From Candidatus Latescibacterota bacterium (lineage in GTDB: Bacteria > Latescibacterota > UBA2968 > GCA-2709665), in the NCBI GenBank assembly GCA_965219995.1, contig CBDCOX010000002.1, positions 3,616,001 through 3,680,000 on the forward strand: a DNA stretch of 64,000 nucleotides. Reading direction: 5' to 3'. The position numbers were made by a program, and so were the translations under genes. The notes beneath the pieces are model-generated. The model ran no database searches. It saw only the letters and a list, made by a program, of their open reading frames with translations, and was not told the origin of the DNA. The stretch's first letter is position 1. The number at the start of each line of letters is the position of its first letter. Positions 1 to 25,695 of the stretch are shown in pieces.

Positions 1-165
1 AGCGGTATGGCCACGCGATATCAATTCGTGGAGTTGCGACCTCACTTAAAGGCGGTGAGACGTGAGAGGGGAGACGTGAGATGACCACCTCGCGATCCCC
101 GGTCAGCGATATGGACACGCGATATCAAATCGTGGAGTTGCGACCTCACCTGAAGGCCGTGAGAG
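1..165 (+). repeat. Direct repeat, 104-bp period, two copies of a ~60-bp core, each followed by GTGAGA(C/G) heptamer runs
   Basis: agcg(g/a)tatgg(c/a)cacgcgatatcaa(t/a)tcgtggagttgcgacctcac at 1 and 105; may continue beyond the left edge of the window. Confidence 0.85.
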
Positions 166-174
166 GGTAGACGG

Positions 175-475
175 GAGATTCCTCGCTCCGCTCAGAATAA
201 TGTTGCGATGGCCATAAGCGACATGTTTCGATTATGCCCTCTTCTGACCGTCACGTTAAAGAACCCGTTGTGAGGGTGGGGCAGACATTCCTGTCTGCCG
301 CATCGATGTCAGGCTGACTGAATGCGGGCATTTCGACAAGCTCAATGACCACACATGGACAAGGATTTTTCAACGTCGCTCAGAATATCAGGCCGGCTGA
401 TCGCCAAAACTGTCATCCTGAGGAAGCCGCCCTGCCTGCCAGCGGTTCATTGGCAGGCAGGCTGACGAAGGATCT
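175..475. repeat. Cluster of REP-like palindromic elements
   Basis: GAGATTCCTCGCTCCGCTCAGAAT (175-198), GTGGGGCAGACATTCCTGTCTGCC hairpin (276-299), TTCGACAAGCTCAATGAC (332-349), TGTCATCCTGAGG...GAAGGATCT (411-475) enclosing a CCTGCCTGCCA/TGGCAGGCAGG stem. Confidence 0.6.
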
Positions 476-630
476 ACTGCGGCATCGCATGATACCCGAG
501 CGCCTTTTGTCATTCGCCGCGACCTGACAGGCGGCACGTATGCGCCCTCACGATCATGCTGAGGCGGCCGCCAGGGAAACCAGACCTCCGCGCATACGGG
601 TCGGTGAAGTCTTCCGCCGCACGTCAAACC

Positions 631-846
631 GAGACGTGAGAGATTGTCTGCATTGTGCGGTGTCATTTCTTGCCAGAGGCACAAAGGAAGAACCAATTGG
701 GCAAGGATGTCATCTACCCTCTTGCGTCTCACGTCTCCCCGGTTTTGTTGCCCTGTGAGGTCTCAATTCCGGCCGGAGGCATTGAGAGAAAGCATATCGG
801 GCAAGGACATCCTCTCCCGTCTCCCGTCTCACGTCTACCCGTCTTT
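631..846. repeat. Dispersed ~100-bp hairpin repeat family bounded by GTGAGAC/CGTCTCAC heptamers (two units)
   Basis: Core ttcttgcc(a/g)gaggca..aaggaagaaccaat(c/t)gggcaaggatgtcatctacc..cgtctcacgtctc recurs at 31257-31387 and 33470-33715. Confidence 0.85.
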
Positions 847-850
847 TGAT

Positions 851-2455
851 TTACCATCCCCACTCCCCTTCCCGGTAATAACCATCCACCACCGGCGCCA
901 GTTCCGTATTCACGGCCACGTCTTCGACGCCATCGAACATTCCCTTCCAGAAGTGCAACATGCCCGTCATCGCCTCGCGGTTCAGGAAGAAGGTCTCGAC
1001 GTCCGAAAAGCGCAACGCCATTGCCCTGCGTTTCAGATCCGCTTCCGATATCACCTCTTCCCTCATGCCCAGTTGCCACCCCCAATCCCCCATAGTCGGA
1101 ATCGCATTGTGGTAGGGCACAACATGGAATCCGGCCGCTTTCATGGTCCGGTACACGCATAGAAACGCCCGTCTGGCGTGGAGCGGGCTGGAACTCTGCG
1201 TCACCAGGACCCCGTGTTGCGACAGATGCCGCCTGCATGCCGTATAGAACTCCTTCGAATACAAGCGAGCGAGGTCCGGCCCCTTGGGGTCCGGCAGATC
1301 GACGAAAATGACGTCATAGATCTTATCGTCGTCCGCCAGAAACCGCCCTGCGTCACGGGTGACCACGTCCACCCTTTCGTCGTCCAGTGCCCCGGCATTG
1401 GCTTCCACAAACACCGGATGGGTCCTGGCCAGCCGGATCATTTCAGGATCCAGGTCCACCAGCGTCACCCGTTTCACGTCGCCGTATTTCAATACTTCCC
1501 GGAGCGCCAGTCCATCCCCCCCGCCGAGAATCAGCACCCGTTCCCTGGATGCCGCCAGTCCCATTGCGGGGTGTACGAGGGGCTCGTGGTACCGTTCCTC
1601 GTCGTACGTGCTGAATTGCATGCCGCCGTTCAGGTACAACCAGTGGTACCCCTTCCACTGCGTCACCACGATCCGCTGGTACGGGGTCTGCGCCTCGTAG
1701 ATCACGCGGTCCCGGTAACGGCTCTGCTCTCCGTATCGAACGATGGGCTTCATGTACACGCCCAGGGCAATCAGTCCGGCTGCGGTGAGCCAGAACGCGG
1801 CAATCAGCGCTTTGCGCCGTACCAGCAGGGCCCGATATTGCCACAACAGCGCGGATGCAACCGCGAAATTGACCGCCCCAAGCGCGATCGGCGTATACGT
1901 CAATCCCAGCTTCGGCAACGCGAAAAACGCAAACAGCAACCCGCCGGCGAGCGCGCCGAAATAGTCCTTCTCCAAAACAGACGCGATATTGGTTCGCAAC
2001 ACCTCGTACGCGTCGTTCATGCGCGTGACAAGAGGAATCTCCAGTCCGATCAGAAGTCCGATCGCTGCCGCATAGGCATAAATAATGGCGCTCGTCCCCT
2101 CGACGAACGCCGTACCCCAATAGGCCGCTGCGGCTGACGTTGCACACAGCGCAGACAGGATAAATTCGACCGCAATAAACCGGTCCAGCAACCGCTCGGT
2201 GAGATATCGGCTCAGCCGGCTTCCGAGCCCCATCGTAAAAAACATCAACGACATCACCAGCGTCCACTGCAATGTCGTGTTTCCAAGCAGATAGCTGGCC
2301 AGCGTCGAGAGCACGAACTCCGCGACGATTCCGGCCAGCCCCGTCGCGAACAGACACGCCTTCAACAGCCGGCCGCTTCCGGTTCCTCCCGGTGTTACGG
2401 TCGGGGAGACTCCTCCGGCATCACGGTCTTCCGGGACGCTGTCTTTTACCGACAT
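851..2455 (-). CDS. speE: Polyamine aminopropyltransferase (spermidine synthase) with N-terminal multi-pass membrane domain
   Basis: Motifs QTPYQRI, YHEPLVHP, VLILGGGDGLALREVLK, VDLDP, DVIFVDLPDP; about 7 hydrophobic helices at the N-terminus. Confidence 0.92.
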   Translation of the reverse strand: MSVKDSVPEDRDAGGVSPTVTPGGTGSGRLLKACLFATGLAGIVAEFVLSTLASYLLGNTTLQWTLVMSLMFFTMGLGSRLSRYLTERLLDRFIAVEFILSALCATSAAAAYWGTAFVEGTSAIIYAYAAAIGLLIGLEIPLVTRMNDAYEVLRTNIASVLEKDYFGALAGGLLFAFFALPKLGLTYTPIALGAVNFAVASALLWQYRALLVRRKALIAAFWLTAAGLIALGVYMKPIVRYGEQSRYRDRVIYEAQTPYQRIVVTQWKGYHWLYLNGGMQFSTYDEERYHEPLVHPAMGLAASRERVLILGGGDGLALREVLKYGDVKRVTLVDLDPEMIRLARTHPVFVEANAGALDDERVDVVTRDAGRFLADDDKIYDVIFVDLPDPKGPDLARLYSKEFYTACRRHLSQHGVLVTQSSSPLHARRAFLCVYRTMKAAGFHVVPYHNAIPTMGDWGWQLGMREEVISEADLKRRAMALRFSDVETFFLNREAMTGMLHFWKGMFDGVEDVAVNTELAPVVDGYYREGEWGW

Positions 2456-2483
2456 ACCCGTTTCTTCTGTCCGGGACAGAACA

Positions 2484-3284
2484 TCAGACGGCTTTACACG
2501 TCAATCCGCCATCCACGACGAGTTCGGCGCCTGTGACGTATTTCGCCTCGTCCGAAGCCAGATACAAAGCCGCGTAGGCCACGTCCCAGGCATCGCCCAT
2601 CCTGCCCATCGGACACTGGCTGTCGCGAATCTCGATCATCCTCTCGACGTCGCCTTCCGCGTAGAACTCGGCCAGTGATTTCGCCACCATCGGCGTATTC
2701 ATGAAACCCGGCAATATGGCATTGGCGCGAATGTTTTTCTTCGCGTACTGCATGGCGATACTCTGGGTCAGCTGATTCACACCACCCTTGGTCGCGCTGT
2801 AGGAGACATAGGGCACGCCCAGCCAGCGGATGGAGGTGATCGAAGAAATATTCACAATCGCCCCTCCACCCTGGCGTTCCATGTGCGGAAGTACATGTTT
2901 GCATGTCAGGAACATACTCTTGAGATTCACGTCAACCACGCGGTCCCAGGTTTCCTCGCTGAGTTCGGCGCACCCCCCCACCTGGAGAATGCCGACATTA
3001 TTGTGCAGAATATCGATCCGGTCGTACGTGTCAATGCATCCGGCGACCATGGCTTCGACGTCTTCCGACCTCGATACGTCCGCCGTGTGGGCCGTACAGT
3101 CCCCTCCCTCACCCGCGATCATGTCGCGGGTTTCCGCCGCCGCATCCGGATTGATATCCGCGGCGAATACGCGGGCGCCTTCTCGCGCGAAGAGAACGGC
3201 CGCCGCCTTGCCGTTCCCCCATCCTGGACCGACCGAACCGGCCCCCGTCACGATCGCGACCTTATTTTGGAGACGATTTCCCAC
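2484..3284 (-). CDS. SDR family NAD(P)-dependent oxidoreductase
   Basis: VTGAGS..GWGNG, NNVG, YSATK catalytic motif, NAILPG, VDGG. Confidence 0.93.
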   Translation of the reverse strand: MGNRLQNKVAIVTGAGSVGPGWGNGKAAAVLFAREGARVFAADINPDAAAETRDMIAGEGGDCTAHTADVSRSEDVEAMVAGCIDTYDRIDILHNNVGILQVGGCAELSEETWDRVVDVNLKSMFLTCKHVLPHMERQGGGAIVNISSITSIRWLGVPYVSYSATKGGVNQLTQSIAMQYAKKNIRANAILPGFMNTPMVAKSLAEFYAEGDVERMIEIRDSQCPMGRMGDAWDVAYAALYLASDEAKYVTGAELVVDGGLTCKAV

Positions 3285-19790: not shown

Positions 19791-20783
19791 ATGGCCCTCA
19801 GGATCTGCAACTGGAAACACGGCAAACAATGGGTCTACTCCATCACGTACGACGAAGCGCTGATCGAGCTGCACGAACGCGCCGTGCCCATCCACGAAGA
19901 ATACAACGTTCCCGGGCATATGGAGGCGGTGGCCGGCCATATCGGCGAGATCCGGAAACTCGGCAACTCGAGCTACAACGGGTTCCGGCATATGACCGGC
20001 GAAGAAATGCGGGAGATGGTGGATCGGGGCTGGGGTGTGGGCAACCACTCATGGAGCCACGAAGTGATCCGTCCGGATATGCTGGACCGGGAGTTGCGCG
20101 AGGCCAGGGACGTGCTGGAAGAGGCCATTGACGGTCCGGTGGACCTCTACTGCTCGCCCGGCAACAACACCAATATGGCGGACCACGTCCTGGCTGCCTG
20201 CCGGGAGTATGGCTATTTGGGCGCGATGAGCCTCACGGATGCCCTCAACCGCCCGGGTGACGAACTCTTCTGGCTGAACCGCACGGCACTGCACGACCAG
20301 TTCTACGAGCCCTTCAACAGCGAGTTCGATCCGTATCGGAACATACGCCACGCGCAGAGAGACAGCGGATGGATCATCGACTATTGCCACTGTCCGCTGG
20401 ATGAGGTCGTCCACCGGAACAAAGACTGCACCGCGGAACAGCTTCGCAGGCGTTTCGAAGCGGTTCTCGGGGAAGGCGGGGACGACGTCTGGTGCGCGGT
20501 TCCGGAAGAAGCCATCTTCTACCACCTGACCCGACGTCACACCGAAGTCACCACCGTGGCGAACGCCGCCGATGAAAAGCGTTATCGGCTGAATGTGAAC
20601 GGACTGTCCGATCGGGTCACCTGCCGCGCGCTGACCCTGGACGCCGACGTGCCCGCGGCCTGGTGCCGGTATCCCCGGATCCGCGTCAACGATCAGCCCA
20701 TGCCCGCCTCGCTCGTCGGTCCGGGCGTCCTGCGAATCACGGTTGACGTCACGGACGGGATGGAGTTGACGTATTCCGCGTAG
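19791..20783 (+). CDS. Polysaccharide deacetylase (NodB-like) family
   Basis: SITYDEAL, GWGVGNHSWSH, SPGN. Confidence 0.82.
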   Translation: MALRICNWKHGKQWVYSITYDEALIELHERAVPIHEEYNVPGHMEAVAGHIGEIRKLGNSSYNGFRHMTGEEMREMVDRGWGVGNHSWSHEVIRPDMLDRELREARDVLEEAIDGPVDLYCSPGNNTNMADHVLAACREYGYLGAMSLTDALNRPGDELFWLNRTALHDQFYEPFNSEFDPYRNIRHAQRDSGWIIDYCHCPLDEVVHRNKDCTAEQLRRRFEAVLGEGGDDVWCAVPEEAIFYHLTRRHTEVTTVANAADEKRYRLNVNGLSDRVTCRALTLDADVPAAWCRYPRIRVNDQPMPASLVGPGVLRITVDVTDGMELTYSA

Positions 20784-20832
20784 AACCAATCCCGGAACGG
20801 CTTGCTGAAAAGCGACTATAGAGGCCCCGCAA

Positions 20833-21390
20833 ATGGACGGCTTCCCGGGTCACGACCTTCACCTGGAGACGGCGCACCTGAAGCTGCGGCCGTTTGAGGC
20901 GGCGGATTTCGATCTGGCGGTTCCGTATTATCAGGATCCGGACTTCCTGAATGTTATGGAAGGAGAACCGCCCGACGAACCCGTTACCCGGGACTACCTC
21001 GAAGGTGCGGGCAGGGCGATGGCGGCACAGGGGTTCCTGTTCGCGATTGTCGAAAAAGAGTCCGGCCGCACCATCGGTGAAGTGTGTCTGCAGTGGATGA
21101 ATCTGGACCGCGGGAGGATTCCGGGCGAGAAAGTTATGCGCCTGCCGATCGGGATCTGGGACAAGTCGCTGTGGGGTCGCGGGTACGGCAAAGAAGTGGC
21201 GCGTTGTCTGATCACGTATGCGTTTGAAGAACTGAAAATCGATCGCTTCTGTCCGATGGACGTGCGCACGGACAATGCGCGATCGGTAGCGCTGTGGCGC
21301 TCGCTCGGCCTCACCGTCGCGAGGGAAGTGGACGGCGGGAAGGTGCTTGATTTCGAGATCACTCGTGCGGACTACGTGCGGATGGGGTGA
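20833..21390 (+). CDS. GNAT N-acetyltransferase (RimJ/RimL-like)
   Basis: LETAHLKLRPF, IWDKSLWGRGYGKE, FEELKIDR, DNARS..LWRSLG. Confidence 0.9.
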   Translation: MDGFPGHDLHLETAHLKLRPFEAADFDLAVPYYQDPDFLNVMEGEPPDEPVTRDYLEGAGRAMAAQGFLFAIVEKESGRTIGEVCLQWMNLDRGRIPGEKVMRLPIGIWDKSLWGRGYGKEVARCLITYAFEELKIDRFCPMDVRTDNARSVALWRSLGLTVAREVDGGKVLDFEITRADYVRMG

Positions 21391-21665
21391 TGAAACCCAC
21401 ATAACCCTTCTCACACAAAGACACAAAGACACGGAGAAAACCAAGAAGGGTCAGGGGACCTTGCTGTTGAGAAAGCCCAGCGGACGCACCAAGATTCTTC
21501 CGCAATCTGAAGTGGTGAACATCTTCGATTGACTTGGCGAGCGGACTATGGGCGGATGGCGTAGAGAAAACCTGAAACCCATTACTCACACAAAGACACA
21601 AAGACACGGAGAAAACCAAGAAGGGTCAGAGGACGTTGCTGGTGAGATGGCCAGGGGGACACACG
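21364..21665 (+). repeat. Two-copy direct repeat (~174-bp period): GNAT gene 3' end plus CTCACACAAAGACACAAAGACACGGAGAAAACCAAGAAGGGTCAG motif
   Basis: Motif at 21410 and 21585; gene tail GCGGACTACGTGCGGATGGGGTGA (21367) recurs as GCGGACTATGGGCGGATGGCGTAG (21541). Confidence 0.9.
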
Positions 21666-21705
21666 CCGCTCCTAACCAGTACATAAGGTCTAAATCAAAT
21701 GCGGT

Positions 21706-22107
21706 CTATGTGATGGTGCCGTTGATAATTCGAGCAATGCCCTCCCTCATTGTTGCAGCGCCAAAGTTCAGTATAAAGCCGAGCTTCAAGTCGGTCAATT
21801 TGAGGTAGGTAAGGACTTGCTTCCGGTGTGCTCTCGTGATTTTCTCAACTGATTTCAACTCCAGGATGACGCGGTCCTCGACGATTATATCCGCGCGAAA
21901 TGCTTCGGAGAATCGCATTCCTTCGAACTCAATTGGTATCGGCACCTGCACCTTAACTTTCATGCCAGCCGTCTGAAGCTGCTTTGCCAGAATCACTTCA
22001 TAGACCGATTCAAGCAAGCCTGGGCCAAGATCCTTATGGAGGCGGACCGCACAATTCACGACCTCTGCACCTATTTCGTTTTCGTTCATCGATCCGAAAT
22101 GTTCCAT
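21706..22107 (-). CDS. GxxExxY protein (PD-(D/E)XK nuclease-like)
   Basis: LGPGLLESVYE, FRADIIVEDRVILELKS, HRKQVLTYLK, GFILNFG; alternative start ATG 22089. Confidence 0.93.
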   Translation of the reverse strand: MEHFGSMNENEIGAEVVNCAVRLHKDLGPGLLESVYEVILAKQLQTAGMKVKVQVPIPIEFEGMRFSEAFRADIIVEDRVILELKSVEKITRAHRKQVLTYLKLTDLKLGFILNFGAATMREGIARIINGTIT

Positions 22108-22132
22108 GCTTAAAGTGATGGATTCCTCTGGT

Positions 22133-22770
22133 GGTTTTCTTTGTGTCTTTGTGTGAGTTGCCCTAGGCCCCGTCTCCGAGCGTAGTGGTCGATGGTATAA
22201 TGTATTCGTCTCCCGTATTCCGTCTCACTGCCTCTCCTGGTTGCCCGTCTTTGGGTTGTTTCCGGTTTTCTTTGTGTCTTGGTGTCTTTGTGTGAGTAGG
22301 TTTAGCCCTCGTCTCCGAGCGCAGTGGTCGATGGTATAATGTACTCGTCTCCCGTATCTCGCACCTACTTCTCCTGGTTGCCCGTCTTTGGGTTGTTTCC
22401 GGTTTTCTTTGTGTCTTGGTGTCTTTGTGTGAGTAGATTTAGCCCTCGTCTCCGAGCGCAGTGGTCGATGGTATAATGTATTCGTCTCCCGTATTCCGTC
22501 TCACTGCCTCTCCTGGTTGCCCGTCTTTGGGTTGTTTCCGGTTTTCTTTGTGTCTTGGTGTCTTTGTGTGAGTAGGTTTAGCCCTCGTCTCCGAGCGCAG
22601 TGGTCGATGGTATAATGTATTCGTCTCCCGTATTCCGTCTCACTGCCTCTCCTGGTTGCCCGTCTTTGGGTTGTTTCCGGTTTTCTTTGTGTCTTGGTGT
22701 CTTTGTGTGAGTAGGTTTAGCCCTCGTCTCCGAGCGTGGCGATCGAGGGGACAACGTATTCGTCCCCGGG
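22133..22770 (-). repeat. Tandem array of four 137-139-bp units, each with the CTCACACAAAGACAC motif and a variant copy of the upstream gene's last ~17 codons
   Basis: Marker cgtctccgagcg at 22171, 22310, 22447, 22586, 22725 (spacings 139, 137, 139, 139); the last occurrence is the real gene end. Confidence 0.97.
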
Positions 22771-25695
22771 ATTGACGAGGTACGTGTAGCCGCCGCCGAG
22801 ATTCGTGCCTTCCCTGAGTCCGCGGACAATCGTAATATCGCCCGTTGAGACGCCGCCGTTTGTGACGGCCGCGATCCTGTAGCTCGTGTCCATCGGCAGA
22901 TCGTTGATGAAATGGATCGTGCGGCCGACGAGGTCGGGACCGGCCGGCAGGGGCGGATCCAGGTCAACCAGATTGTTCGCCGGGTCGGAAGCATCGATTC
23001 CTGTCACTCTCCCGCGCCATGAGGGACGTTCCGCTGTCAGTTCAACGCCGCCGACAGCGAGAGAGGTGCCGCCGATCATTCGCATCAGCTTCACCTCATC
23101 CCCCGCCAGGCGGATCATGCCAAGGGTGCCGTTGAACCTGATCCCGCCTTCCACTTCGACTTCCATCGGATCCTCACAACTGATCAGGATGTCTGTGCGG
23201 CCATCGACCATCTCTACGGCCACGGCGGCGGCGCTGCAGGCATCCCCGGCGTGGTTCACCTCCAGTTCCCGCGCCCGAGAGATGAGCCGGTTTGTATCGT
23301 AAGGTTCCAGGACGTTGAGAAACCGGCTATGCATCTCTTCGCCCAGCCTGCTCTGGATCAGATACCTGGGCCGCTGCAGCCGCCGCGGCGAATCCCCTGT
23401 GGCGAGCGCCACCTCATCGCAGGGCGTAAGCGCGTGCAGGCGAAGGTGCGGCTCGCAGCCTTCCGGAATTCGTCCGTGGATGTCCTCGATCTTCCAGTCG
23501 ACCCGGTACAGCTTCCGGACTGCCCCGGGGGAGCGTTCCACGTCGTATAGGTACGTGAAGCCGCTCTCCTTGAAGAAGTCCGCGTTCTCGCCGTCCAGCG
23601 TGGCGAACGAAATGTTGGGATCCGCAAAGGTGCCGCCATCCTGACCGACGAGTTCCAGGCTGGCAACACCAGCCGTTTCCGCGGCGCCGTGCCAGGACAG
23701 ACGGTGGTTTCTCCCGCCTCTTGCGCGAAACACATCCAGAACGTAGCTGTTGTCGTCGTCCACATCGACCATGGCGACCGTACGTCGGTAGGTTCGCAGC
23801 CCCTCATAAGCACTGGGCGCATCCACCTGGATCCCGCGCAACGGGGGCTCGACGGCGAAGCACTCGACCTGTCCGCCGGGGCTGTACGCCGATCGGGTAT
23901 CGCCCACCAGCAGCGTATTGTGACTGATCGTATTGGCCGTCCACGCGTGCCGTTTCGGCCAGGTCCCGGTGTATTCCGGGTACCCAAGGTCCGGCATCAT
24001 CGCCACGTTTTTCGCCAGCAGTCCCACGTTGAGCGAATCGTGGTGGGAGTGGCCCTTTCCCTGCCCGTAGTGGATGAAAACTGCGCGGCCGTTTTCCGGT
24101 CGTCCTGTCTGCAACTGCGCCTGCCCGTACCGCCCCAAGTGCTCACTCGTCAGGTTGCCCGATCCCTGTTGACCGACGTTCCGTATCTCACGGATCAGCG
24201 CGTCCGGATCCTCGCGGAAAATGTCATCCTCCAAGCGCAGGGTGGAACCGTGCGCGGAGTGTTCGTGCCAGGCCAGGGCCGCGAAACGCGGGTCCCCGTA
24301 CAATCTGTACGCCTGGACATAGGTCGCGGCATCGCCCTGGCGGCCCCACGCGCCCACGGCGCCGCTGTCCCCGGTGTTCGGCATCATGCCATCCAGGACG
24401 TTCAGCCGGGACTCCACGAGATAAGCCTGTTTGAGCTTCGGGTAATCCTCGACGAGATTGTGTTTCGTGTACTCAGGATACGTGGTCAGAATCTGCGCCA
24501 GTTCCCGCATGTGGCGGGTCCAGATGAGACCGTAACCCCCGCACTCACCGCCCATGCCGTCCCTGTCGAGACCCTCGGTCAATACCCAGGTCACCGGGTC
24601 GTTCTGGGCTGCGTGTTCCCCTGGAAATCCTGGATGGAACAGCCAGTCCAGCCACTCCGGCGTCAATTCGGGATGGTCCAGAGCGATCGCGGCGGTGGCG
24701 AGGGACGTGTGGTTCATGCCCGTGTTGCCGCTGATCCGGCCATCCTTTACAGAGGCAAGCGCCTCCAGCAGCAGATGACTCTGAATATGCCCGCAGATCA
24801 CCGCAATACTGCTTTTGTCCCGCAGGTCATATTCTCCGGCTCTGTCCGAGCAGAAAACCACCAGTTCATCATCGTCCTGGAGGCCGTCGAAGATGACGTC
24901 GTAGCTGCGCGCGAGGACCTGCACGACGAAGGTTTCCCAGATACAACCCTCAATCCGGCCTCTCCCCGAACCGCCCTGGCTGTGCTGAAATCCCAATTCG
25001 TGCAGCGGCAGGTAGTCCATCTCCGGATAGACGTCCGCGATCCGGTCAAGCAGAACGCCCGCCTTGTGGGCGTAGCGCCGGTCATTGGTGAGCGCGTACG
25101 CGTCGGCCAGCGCGGCAACGCCCCGCTGTATCCGACGCCACACGGCTTCGAAATTGTAGTATGCGATGATATCGTGTCGATTGCCCTGTTCGTCGAACAT
25201 GCCGTACCCGTCGTCGACGTGGAGTTCGTGCAGGGGGTCGGACGGATCGGGATGATCGGCATTGAACAGGAGCGACCGGTCGCCCAACTCACGACTGAAC
25301 ATCCCGTGCTCGTCGAGGGCCGACCTGTAGAAGGCCCCGAAGTCGTTCTTCGGGTACACCTCTCCGCAGTGTTCGCACCAGATCTTCCACGGCCTGGCGT
25401 CGTCGAACTCCCACCATTCGCGCCCCGATTTCGCCGGGGCCGTTTCGCCGCATCCGGGGCAATAGGGTTGCTGCCCCTTGTACGTCACCCCTTCGTTGGT
25501 GTAGACCGTCCGCGGCAACTCCTGCGCGGTGACCATCCCCCACAACGCATCGTCAGTGCGGTCGACCCACTCCTCGGCAGCCGCGACCGCCCCATCACGC
25601 CGCTCCCGCGCCCAGTCATATTTTTTCGCATTCGCCACCGCATTCGACCGCATCGACGCGCTGACGAACCGGCTTTGCTTTTTCCCAATTGACAT
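22717..25695 (-). CDS. Large heparinase II/III family protein with N-terminal Cys4 zinc-ribbon-like insert
   Basis: CPGC...CEHC, VDDGYG, GRISGNTGM, GHSHHDSLN, PDLGYP, TISHNTLLV; AAAGGGG RBS before ATG 25695. Confidence 0.82.
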   Translation of the reverse strand: MSIGKKQSRFVSASMRSNAVANAKKYDWARERRDGAVAAAEEWVDRTDDALWGMVTAQELPRTVYTNEGVTYKGQQPYCPGCGETAPAKSGREWWEFDDARPWKIWCEHCGEVYPKNDFGAFYRSALDEHGMFSRELGDRSLLFNADHPDPSDPLHELHVDDGYGMFDEQGNRHDIIAYYNFEAVWRRIQRGVAALADAYALTNDRRYAHKAGVLLDRIADVYPEMDYLPLHELGFQHSQGGSGRGRIEGCIWETFVVQVLARSYDVIFDGLQDDDELVVFCSDRAGEYDLRDKSSIAVICGHIQSHLLLEALASVKDGRISGNTGMNHTSLATAAIALDHPELTPEWLDWLFHPGFPGEHAAQNDPVTWVLTEGLDRDGMGGECGGYGLIWTRHMRELAQILTTYPEYTKHNLVEDYPKLKQAYLVESRLNVLDGMMPNTGDSGAVGAWGRQGDAATYVQAYRLYGDPRFAALAWHEHSAHGSTLRLEDDIFREDPDALIREIRNVGQQGSGNLTSEHLGRYGQAQLQTGRPENGRAVFIHYGQGKGHSHHDSLNVGLLAKNVAMMPDLGYPEYTGTWPKRHAWTANTISHNTLLVGDTRSAYSPGGQVECFAVEPPLRGIQVDAPSAYEGLRTYRRTVAMVDVDDDNSYVLDVFRARGGRNHRLSWHGAAETAGVASLELVGQDGGTFADPNISFATLDGENADFFKESGFTYLYDVERSPGAVRKLYRVDWKIEDIHGRIPEGCEPHLRLHALTPCDEVALATGDSPRRLQRPRYLIQSRLGEEMHSRFLNVLEPYDTNRLISRARELEVNHAGDACSAAAVAVEMVDGRTDILISCEDPMEVEVEGGIRFNGTLGMIRLAGDEVKLMRMIGGTSLAVGGVELTAERPSWRGRVTGIDASDPANNLVDLDPPLPAGPDLVGRTIHFINDLPMDTSYRIAAVTNGGVSTGDITIVRGLREGTNLGGGYTYLVNPGDEYVVPSIATLGDEG

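Follow-up and report, generated by a model that had tools for sequence, protein, structure and literature searches.

Some islands and phages located in the 3' ends of tRNA or protein genes supply the gene they enter with a replacement 3' end. The REPIN-RAYT system consists of doublets of repetitive extragenic palindromic (REP) sequences and a single-copy REP-associated tyrosine transposase (RAYT), as set out in the relevant parts of two reports (PMC3337134; bioRxiv 10.1101/2022.05.22.493013), and the intervening sequence of Coxiella was termed selfish in the passage of a paper that deals with it (PMC4990558). For the GxxExxY proteins (PF13366), the corresponding section of a 2012 superfamily survey gave the function as unknown and reported multiple transfers (PMC3424549). 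Here, we analyzed a 64-kb window (meaning the whole stretch of DNA under analysis) from the genome of a Candidatus Latescibacterota bacterium, in which a GxxExxY gene encoding a PD-(D/E)XK-type nuclease is the sole gene of a 1.33-kb intergenic block and is bracketed by repeats that are inverted relative to each other. The cassette can be likened to a REPIN-RAYT system, or to the pair of a miniature inverted-repeat transposable element and its transposase, because of this inverted bracket and the scattered gene-less copies of the same motif. Our reading, held tentatively and at slightly less than an even chance, is that the block, either REPIN-RAYT-like or homing-like, is a gene-bearing example of small cassettes bounded by repeats that form a widespread family. 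The pairing of gene and repeat across phyla suggests that this is a kind of small selfish DNA element not yet described; in open-access papers and preprints, no paper linking PF13366 or PDDEXK families to such repeats was found.

The block lies between a GNAT gene on the plus strand and a convergent heparinase II/III-like gene on the minus strand, and the nuclease gene inside it is on the minus strand. The GC content (guanine plus cytosine) of the block was about 49-51%, compared with 60-64% in the flanks. The motif, CTCACACAAAGACAC(A/C)AAGACAC..AAAACC, has the 8-nt-periodic form CTCAC(ACAAAGAC)n..AAAACC and was present in two copies on the plus strand at the left and in four full copies and one short copy on the minus strand at the right. 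The search for CTCACACAAAGACACMAAGACAC with up to two mismatches gave seven matches in the window, all of them at this locus (plus strand, 21410 and 21585; minus strand, 22274-22296, 22411-22433, 22550-22572, 22689-22711, and the shortened copy at 22135-22157), with 0.00 matches expected from shuffled sequences. The units of the right array matched each other at 92% and were ordered as heparinase tail copy, stop codon, 5 nt, motif, and a spacer of about 50 nt, while the left side contained two 80-nt copies that were 89% alike and 175 nt apart. The left and right motifs were inverted relative to each other and formed arms of up to 41 nt with 88% complementarity. The distance from the stop codon of the host gene to the motif was 5 nt on the heparinase side and 19 nt on the GNAT side.

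The multiplicity of the repeats was also observed in the reads. In run X1, which was probably derived from the source sample, the unitig depth was 74-84 for the unique flanks, 160 for the left motif (2x), and 197, 281, and 248 for the right units (2.5-3.5x), and the repeats were regarded as multi-copy in the reads because the depth exceeded that of the flanks. None of the four runs yielded a contig spanning the array, so the exact figure of 4.6 copies depends on the assembly. The strain of run X6 varied from the window by single 8-nt units; at window position 22142, this related strain carried an extra GTGTCTTG, which restored the full-length motif ahead of the nuclease gene. The RNA runs X19 and X20 contained under a tenth of the sampled words, and the contigs of X19 matched host genes at 90-99%, which was uninformative on expression. 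No Rfam match was found in 20500-23500 at E up to 1, and the scan of 21200-22900 for promoters and terminators gave nothing terminator-like and a single promoter-like site, which lay within the gene, a result that was not above that of shuffled sequences.

Comparison of the units with the neighboring genes showed that the repeats also contained altered copies of the host gene ends. Each unit at the right carried 18 codons, TGDEYIIPSTTALGDEG* (the asterisk marks the stop codon), corresponding to the real heparinase end PGDEYVVPSIATLGDEG*, with the frame kept and TAA or TAG as the stop codon. The left unit carried LTWRADYGRMA*, corresponding to the real GNAT end ITRADYVRMG*, with one codon more. 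In what follows, G000 denotes the genome of the window (5.44 Mb, 2 contigs, 98.6% complete), G001-G015 and further such numbers denote the other genomes compared, and L-numbers denote loci. Related copies of the GNAT end, LTRRADYERMG* and LTRRADYGRMA*, were found in G001, and one of them was identical over 27 nt to the real GNAT end of that genome. The 8,505 ends of open reading frames (ORFs) in G000 were scanned for near-copies that lie downstream and close with a stop codon. Among the 40 best matches, no gene tail other than the heparinase end was repeated together with this motif; the other top matches came from large genes with internal repeats, tandem paralogues, and ORFs inside repeats, and were rejected. 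The C-terminal 10 or so residues of the heparinase-like protein were highly variable across the genus (..LGDEG, ..LGEMT, ..VGAST, ..FGDET, ..FGGGA), and the 80 residues before this variable end were well conserved (window 22717-22770 and its orthologues). The C-terminal third of this protein had 8-13 matches per genus genome, most of which were paralogues of about 1000 aa (G000-G021).

A second case of tail duplication was found when 98 GxxExxY loci were scanned, in which high scores came mostly from ORFs running through the repeats themselves: host-tail copies were present only at the orthologous junction and at one locus of G013, i.e., at one of the 20 other GxxExxY loci in the genus. The host gene in G013 is unrelated and ends in PLNQFAA*, and it is followed by an array of four 186-nt units carrying the motif of another protein clade (clade D, see below), each of which begins with an eight-codon copy of this end and a stop codon. 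The copies showed 12 distinct variant states, of which 9 were silent and 3 non-silent, with an expected silent share of 0.208 (binomial P = 8.7e-5; all four units were counted, and the case was chosen after being seen). This variation looks like that of real gene ends from different lineages rather than that of a dead copy drifting in place. In the array-overlap test with Tandem Repeats Finder, the flanks of the orthologous loci were too short for the positive controls to be recognized, and the one ORF that was flagged ran into a repeat. Host genes ending in ..VPLNQFAA* were also observed ahead of clade A cassettes in G008 (L031) and G015 (L049), as well as ahead of the clade D cassette in G013 (L047); at L049, the upstream motif was a long run of GGATAGACA units.

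The protein encoded by the cassette has 133 aa and scored 133.6 bits against PF13366 (cut-off 22) and 132.3 bits against TIGR04256 (cut-off 35). PF13366 was its only Pfam match, and G000 contained one PF13366 gene. The true start of the gene is probably the second ATG at 22089, as the relatives begin at residue 7. Across 27 sequences, G30-L-L-E33-S-V-Y36, D73, and E83-L-K85 were invariant or conserved in at least 90%, and Q97-xxx-Y101 was conserved likewise; this set (E33, D73, E83-x-K85, and Q97-xxx-Y101) is the motif set of the RecB/Cas4-type nucleases. PADLOC gave weak matches only (RTasPDDEXK, 3.1e-5; Cas4, 0.0027), which fit a RecB/Cas4-like core, and the protein was not assigned to a defence system. 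The search of PDB by the sequence and by the profile of the 27 sequences gave a single chance match at E 0.62 and then none. The sequence-only reading of this DNA had described the motif counts and their inverted arrangement around a lone GxxExxY gene, the tail copies with in-frame stops on both sides, the likeness to PD-(D/E)XK nucleases, and the lack of a transposase or integrase. The motif and repeat searches, the sequence comparison, and the family-model matches with the conserved catalytic residues bore out the first three of these descriptions; as for the last, no transposase, integrase, or reverse transcriptase was found in or near the block, and no tyrosine or serine recombinase was found within about 4 kb.

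The bracket of periodic motifs recurred at other GxxExxY loci. The number of PF13366 genes per genome was 0-6 in 41 relatives, and the 20 further GxxExxY loci of the genus fell into four protein clades, each with a periodic motif of its own that was direct upstream and inverted downstream of the gene. Since the loci within a clade were largely orthologous, the pairing of clade and motif alone could be due to shared descent; clade D formed an exception, its cassette lying behind one host gene in G013 and another in G004. Relatives of the window protein with 34-95% identity were encoded at 78 loci in Latescibacterota, Anaerolineae, Verrucomicrobiota, Planctomycetota, Acidobacteriota, Proteobacteria, and Bacteroidota. 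At many of these loci, and at most of those of the closer relatives, the best inverted pair was a variant of the same motif, CTCAC(A/G)C.AAG(A/G)C(A/G)C.AAG, which usually ended at or just before the start codon. When a strict periodic regular expression was applied to the 77 of the 78 loci with full flanks, forward matches were present within 150 nt upstream at 32 loci and reverse matches at 9, while within 350 nt downstream inverted matches were present at 34 and forward matches at 15, and both sides were correct at 21. The density of matches was 2.6 per kb upstream and 1.6 per kb downstream vs 0.049 per kb per strand in the far flanks (12 matches in 122 kb), demonstrating a 33-53 times enrichment near the gene.

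Tandem repeats with a period of at least 40 nt were present beside the gene at 23 of the 98 GxxExxY loci. One locus of Lentisphaerales echoed the layout of the window, with a host stop codon, 5 nt, the motif, 3.3 hairpin units, and the ATG in succession. The upstream host genes of related cassettes included a type I restriction R subunit (L092 3-1142, Lentisphaerales) and a tyrosyl-tRNA synthetase (L055 3-1214, Anaerolineae). The stretch ..CSMGLINYES.. in the clade B units was rejected as a host tail and counted as part of the element, because it recurred behind different upstream genes.

Copies of the motif were also scattered over the genomes. In G000, the relaxed pattern gave 38 matches, 31 of which were outside the locus, and the periodic pattern gave 63 matches in 52 clusters, among which the nuclease locus was the only one with both orientations within 1.5 kb. 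Five gene-carrying genomes of other phyla, which hold 2-7 PF13366 genes each, gave 4, 321, 5, 73, and 93 motif matches, with 0 in the controls. Many of the matches in G044 and G045 were plus/minus doublets 46-211 nt apart, and no doublets were found outside the locus in G000. Elsewhere in G000 the motif was a solo module within mosaic intergenic repeats, which consisted of CAGCNGTCAGC runs, the motif studied here, an GGGCAACCACAAGGGTTGCCC hairpin, GAGACG runs, and a unit of about 110 nt beginning AAATTCAAAATCCCCTTTTCCCC; examples with these modules in varying order were observed in G000:C2 at 3267562, 3391426, 4793661, and 5035024. The three genes of G000 for PF05635 four-helix-bundle proteins, all on this contig, were each located between periodic repeats of their own, namely GAGACG-type repeats at 3148122-3148436 (-), TTAATTCT-type repeats at 4903622-4903936 (+), and GAAGAA-type repeats at 2476256-2476546 (+), and upstream of the gene at 4903622-4903936 part of its own 3' end was repeated.

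The junction behind the heparinase gene could be followed through the genus, as the orthologue was present in 14 of the 15 genomes (G000 included). The nuclease gene was located at the same place and in the same orientation in G000, G001, G004, and G007 (4 of the 14 junctions), with tail copies of about 52, 55, 110, and 25 nt, respectively, each of which resembled the tail of its own lineage. Another four junctions, those of G006, G009, G011, and G014, had a gene-less spacer of about 100 bp. At four-fold degenerate sites, G000 differed from G001 at 3 of 56 in the nuclease gene and at 20 of 92, 37 of 146, and 13 of 58 in the neighbors, and it differed from G007 at 6 of 57 in the nuclease gene and at 21 of 77, 58 of 142, and 14 of 51 in the neighbors. 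The nuclease gene was 3-4 times less diverged than its neighbors in both comparisons. The low silent divergence, together with the low GC content, suggests that the cassette was exchanged between lineages at the same site.

We propose a mechanism in which the nuclease, a protein of 127-133 aa of the minimal RecB/Cas4-like PD-(D/E)XK type, would be the likely trans-acting partner of the periodic repeats; we infer that it binds or cuts the motif. The cassette sits immediately behind the stop codon of a host gene, and recombination between motif copies would duplicate units composed of the host tail, the stop codon, and the motif. This recombination would take the form of unequal exchange between motif copies, probably also with DNA of related strains; breaks made by the nuclease could start it, and exchange between strains could be the source of the tails. 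Each event would shift a once-working host gene end downstream, and the tail copies would have kept their frame and stop codon because each was a functional gene end before it was pushed downstream. In a broader version, the GxxExxY proteins would be the trans-acting nucleases of 8-nt-periodic repeats and the PD-(D/E)XK counterpart of RAYT, the cassettes would home to gene 3' ends with replacement tails, the arrays would record successive invasions, the dispersed repeats would be non-autonomous offspring, and the PF05635 genes would be a sister class. We consider this broader version rather doubtful.

A number of observations on the motif, the tails, and the protein weigh against the reading of the block as a member of a cassette family. 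The motif proved to be distributed largely independently of the gene, which the sequence-only reading had named as a finding that would speak against it: the whole-genome scan of G000 gave 58 motif matches, with 0 for the reversed-pattern control, beside one PF13366 gene, and G003 and G009 gave 36 and 32 matches without any PF13366 match. Genomes without the gene had 10-76 matches and those with it 49-134, and the means of about 34 and 74 were not used as a test, being confounded by shared ancestry. The clade A motif ACAGGATRGRCAGGATA, which we take to resemble the GGA-rich binding consensus of CsrA, had 93 matches in G000 at up to one mismatch, and no clade A gene is present there. The expectation that motif and tail duplication would be general at GxxExxY loci held for the motif bracket, which recurs across phyla, and failed for the tails, which were duplicated at one of the 20 further loci of the genus and at none of the 74 non-orthologous loci from other taxa. 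The heparinase tail copies of the window differed by 5 silent and 6 mostly conservative non-silent changes, which was not significant. Moreover, RecB/Cas4-like domains are for the most part end-processing enzymes without sequence specificity.

The orthologous junction provided further points of this kind. The empty junctions that had been sought in relatives exist, and all four of them (G006, G009, G011, and G014) still had the motif, 5-6 nt past the heparinase stop codon, so the motif may predate the cassette or be independent of it. G010 lacked the nuclease gene and nevertheless had a short tail copy, a second motif, and other modules. In G008 and G013, which also lacked the gene, direct repeats of 250 and 800 nt with 89-90% identity held 207-243 nt of the heparinase end. 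One point from G013 speaks for the proposed reading: its downstream copy was the ancestral tail typical of the clade, close to the working tail of G012, while the working tail of G013 was new, with a different last stretch of about 75 nt. The heparinase gene end is thus a recombination hot spot where displaced ends are kept downstream, with or without a nuclease gene. Between those direct repeats lay an opposite-strand gene for a BrkB/YihY-family membrane protein (L021 of G013, 63-3139; L017 of G008, 95-2740), an arrangement suggestive of a Campbell-type insertion or of a partial tandem duplication.

Against a mobile cassette also stands its restriction to a single junction. The sequence-only reading had taken the system to be selfish or mobile; recurrence, foreign GC content, and low divergence agree with this, but among the 14 genus genomes with the orthologous junction the cassette of the four carriers was found at no other junction. 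These junctions revealed neither a clean insertion boundary nor a target duplication, and for the clade D cassette that follows a TPR gene, comparison of 14 relatives showed a junction rearranged in several ways with no readable target duplication. The reduced silent divergence was not general either: vs G004, the nuclease gene differed at 23 of 55 four-fold degenerate sites and the neighbor at 68 of 144, which is no reduction. Between G000 and G001 the ORF was 95-98% identical and the non-coding 3' flank of the cassette 86-88%, and with a flank so weakly conserved, the low divergence may be due in part to constraint on the gene and not to recent transfer.

These observations keep alive the explanation that the block belongs to a passive repeat landscape, because the motif persists in gene-less genomes, at gene-less junctions, and beside tail duplications with other cargo or none. 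The motif would then be a dispersed mosaic module, similar to REP sequences and to bacterial interspersed mosaic elements (BIMEs), whose place behind stop codons would have to do with the host, for instance with termination, RNA stability, or protein binding; ordinary slippage during replication and unequal crossing-over within the repeat-rich spacer would have given rise to the arrays and tails; and the gene would merely lodge there, or use the motif for its own regulation, without a part in the arrays. Most motif copies in G000 are indeed solo within composite repeats, 51 of the 52 motif clusters have no gene, the variation between strains by single 8-nt units fits slippage, and the three similarly embedded PF05635 genes imply that small genes in repeats are general in G000. 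Such a landscape leaves unexplained why a similar motif, direct and then inverted, surrounds relatives of this protein across phyla and at very different GC contents, why the only two-orientation cluster and the only tail-motif duplication seen in G000 are at the nuclease locus, and why silent changes are in excess among the tail copies of G013. We regard it as a serious possibility, though an unlikely one. The explanation that the repeats are selected as RNA, in the manner of rRNA intervening sequences, seems improbable. The arms would pair in a read-through transcript of the heparinase gene and RNase III would cut there, releasing or silencing the nuclease message. In the predicted fold of the 596-nt minus-strand RNA, the motif arms close the whole ORF (-199.8 kcal/mol, z = -3.4, equaled by 0 of 100 shuffles), the gene is co-oriented with its upstream host gene, and the array has no promoter-like or terminator-like site. 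The upstream neighbor was co-oriented at 51 of 73 loci as well, but such 70% co-orientation is ordinary for bacterial neighbors. The arm mismatches in 32 loci showed no bias toward sense G-U pairs (37 wobble-compatible in sense, 64 in antisense, and 68 transversions), the solo gene-less copies cannot form the helix, and the region matched no Rfam family. In favor of this explanation, the Coxiella intervening sequence is described as a selfish element with a small ORF (PMC4990558).

Two further explanations concern the array itself, and both were given very little weight. Expansion of a single unit by the assembler would be compatible with the lack of a contig spanning the array in the four runs, but the excess unitig depth of the left motif and the right units, the point changes and one variant spacer by which the units differ, and the arrays of other lengths at the same place in the independent assemblies of G001, G004, G007, and G010 make such an artefact highly improbable. 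The resemblance of near-copies downstream of a gene 3' end to a template/variable repeat pair, in which several of the differences are an A in the copy, could point to a diversity-generating retroelement or a similar system acting on the heparinase 3' end with the array units as templates. This was the least credible of the explanations considered, since RVT_1 had no match in the 98.6%-complete G000 but did match in control genomes, the differences extend beyond adenines (T/C, C/T, and A/G too), there are four copies instead of one, and the same architecture is found on the GNAT side and at other loci.

The genes in the neighborhood of the block encode isochorismatase-like, polysaccharide deacetylase, GNAT, heparinase-like, and Yip1 proteins, and the features of the locus are listed in the table below.

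Table. Features of the GxxExxY cassette and its host genes, with positions in the window.
Feature	Position	Strand	Basis or remark
GNAT acetyltransferase gene, left host gene	20833..21390	+	PF13302 E 3.6e-21
Motif copy 1, GNAT side (CTCACACAAAGACACAAAGACACGGAGAAAACC)	21410..21442	+	19 nt past GNAT stop codon
Altered copy of GNAT 3' end, LTWRADYGRMA*, in-frame TAG	21529..21564	+	read directly from sequence
Motif copy 2, GNAT side; on the minus strand, the inverted arm closing the cassette	21585..21617	+	repeat and motif search
GxxExxY PD-(D/E)XK nuclease gene	21706..22107	-	PF13366 E 5.6e-39, TIGR04256 E 1e-38
Motif copy short of one 8-mer, immediately ahead of the nuclease gene; forms the 5' arm of the cassette	22133..22157	-	
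Tandem array, 139-nt units, 4.6 copies	22138..22768	-	repeat search; unitig depth
Four 54-nt heparinase tail copies	22163-22216, 22302-22355, 22439-22492, 22578-22631	-	
Four full motif copies	22264-22296, 22401-22433, 22540-22572, 22679-22711	-	
Heparinase II/III-like gene, right host gene, 1010 aa	22717..25749	-	PF07940 E 2e-11; orthologues in relatives
Whole GC-poor intergenic block	21391..22716	.	GC profile

The GxxExxY proteins form a large family present in many phyla, and the data give them a testable role as repeat-associated nucleases. The cassettes could also be the origin of a class of intergenic repeats with which genomes of Latescibacterota, Verrucomicrobiota, Acidobacteriota, and other groups are cluttered. 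The arrays of tail copies suggest a route by which the C-terminal ends of host proteins may be swapped and yet kept intact while selfish DNA lodges behind the gene.

Among the known systems, BIMEs and the short tandemly repeated repetitive sequences of cyanobacteria share with this locus the mosaic intergenic modules of short periodic units behind genes; to our knowledge, they are not tied to a PD-(D/E)XK gene and carry no host gene ends. The intervening sequences of 23S rRNA with an S23p (PF05635) ORF resemble the cassette in having a small ORF within inverted repeats and a predicted long helix, and the three PF05635 genes of G000 are likewise embedded in short periodic repeats. They differ in that the cassette lies between protein genes, encodes another protein family, and has arms without a sign of selection at the RNA level. 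Integrative elements that replace the 3' end of their target are similar in that displaced and replacement host ends with stop codons follow the gene in direct order, that direct repeats holding the target 3' end bound inserted DNA, and that the copies evolve as coding sequence. In contrast to such elements, the block has no integrase or recombinase, its units are only 139-186 nt, and both convergent hosts are affected.

Homing endonuclease genes provide another comparison, being small nuclease genes with a foreign base composition and a lower divergence than their flanks, found at the same insertion point in several lineages (4 of 14 here) beside gene-less junctions in others (4 of 14), with the flanking host sequence replaced. 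However, the gene-less junctions here already hold the motif, homing leads to co-conversion of the flanks and not to tandem duplication, and homing genes are not accompanied by gene-less repeats in their hundreds. The differences from REPIN-RAYT systems are that the protein of the window is a PD-(D/E)XK protein (PF13366) instead of an HUH/Y1 (IS200-like) transposase, that its repeat is an 8-nt-periodic purine-rich run instead of a short palindrome, that the dispersed copies in G000 are solo instead of doublets, and that vertical inheritance is described for REPIN-RAYT systems, while the silent-site data of the cassette hint at horizontal exchange. Because it has no HUH transposase and no recombinase and lies outside an rRNA gene, the block is not a member of the REPIN-RAYT systems, the integrative elements, or the rRNA intervening sequences. 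What it has in common with REPIN-RAYT systems is a low-copy nuclease gene flanked by its own repeats in inverted orientation, together with tens to hundreds of gene-less extragenic copies that often lie right behind genes and, in some genomes, form hairpin doublets.

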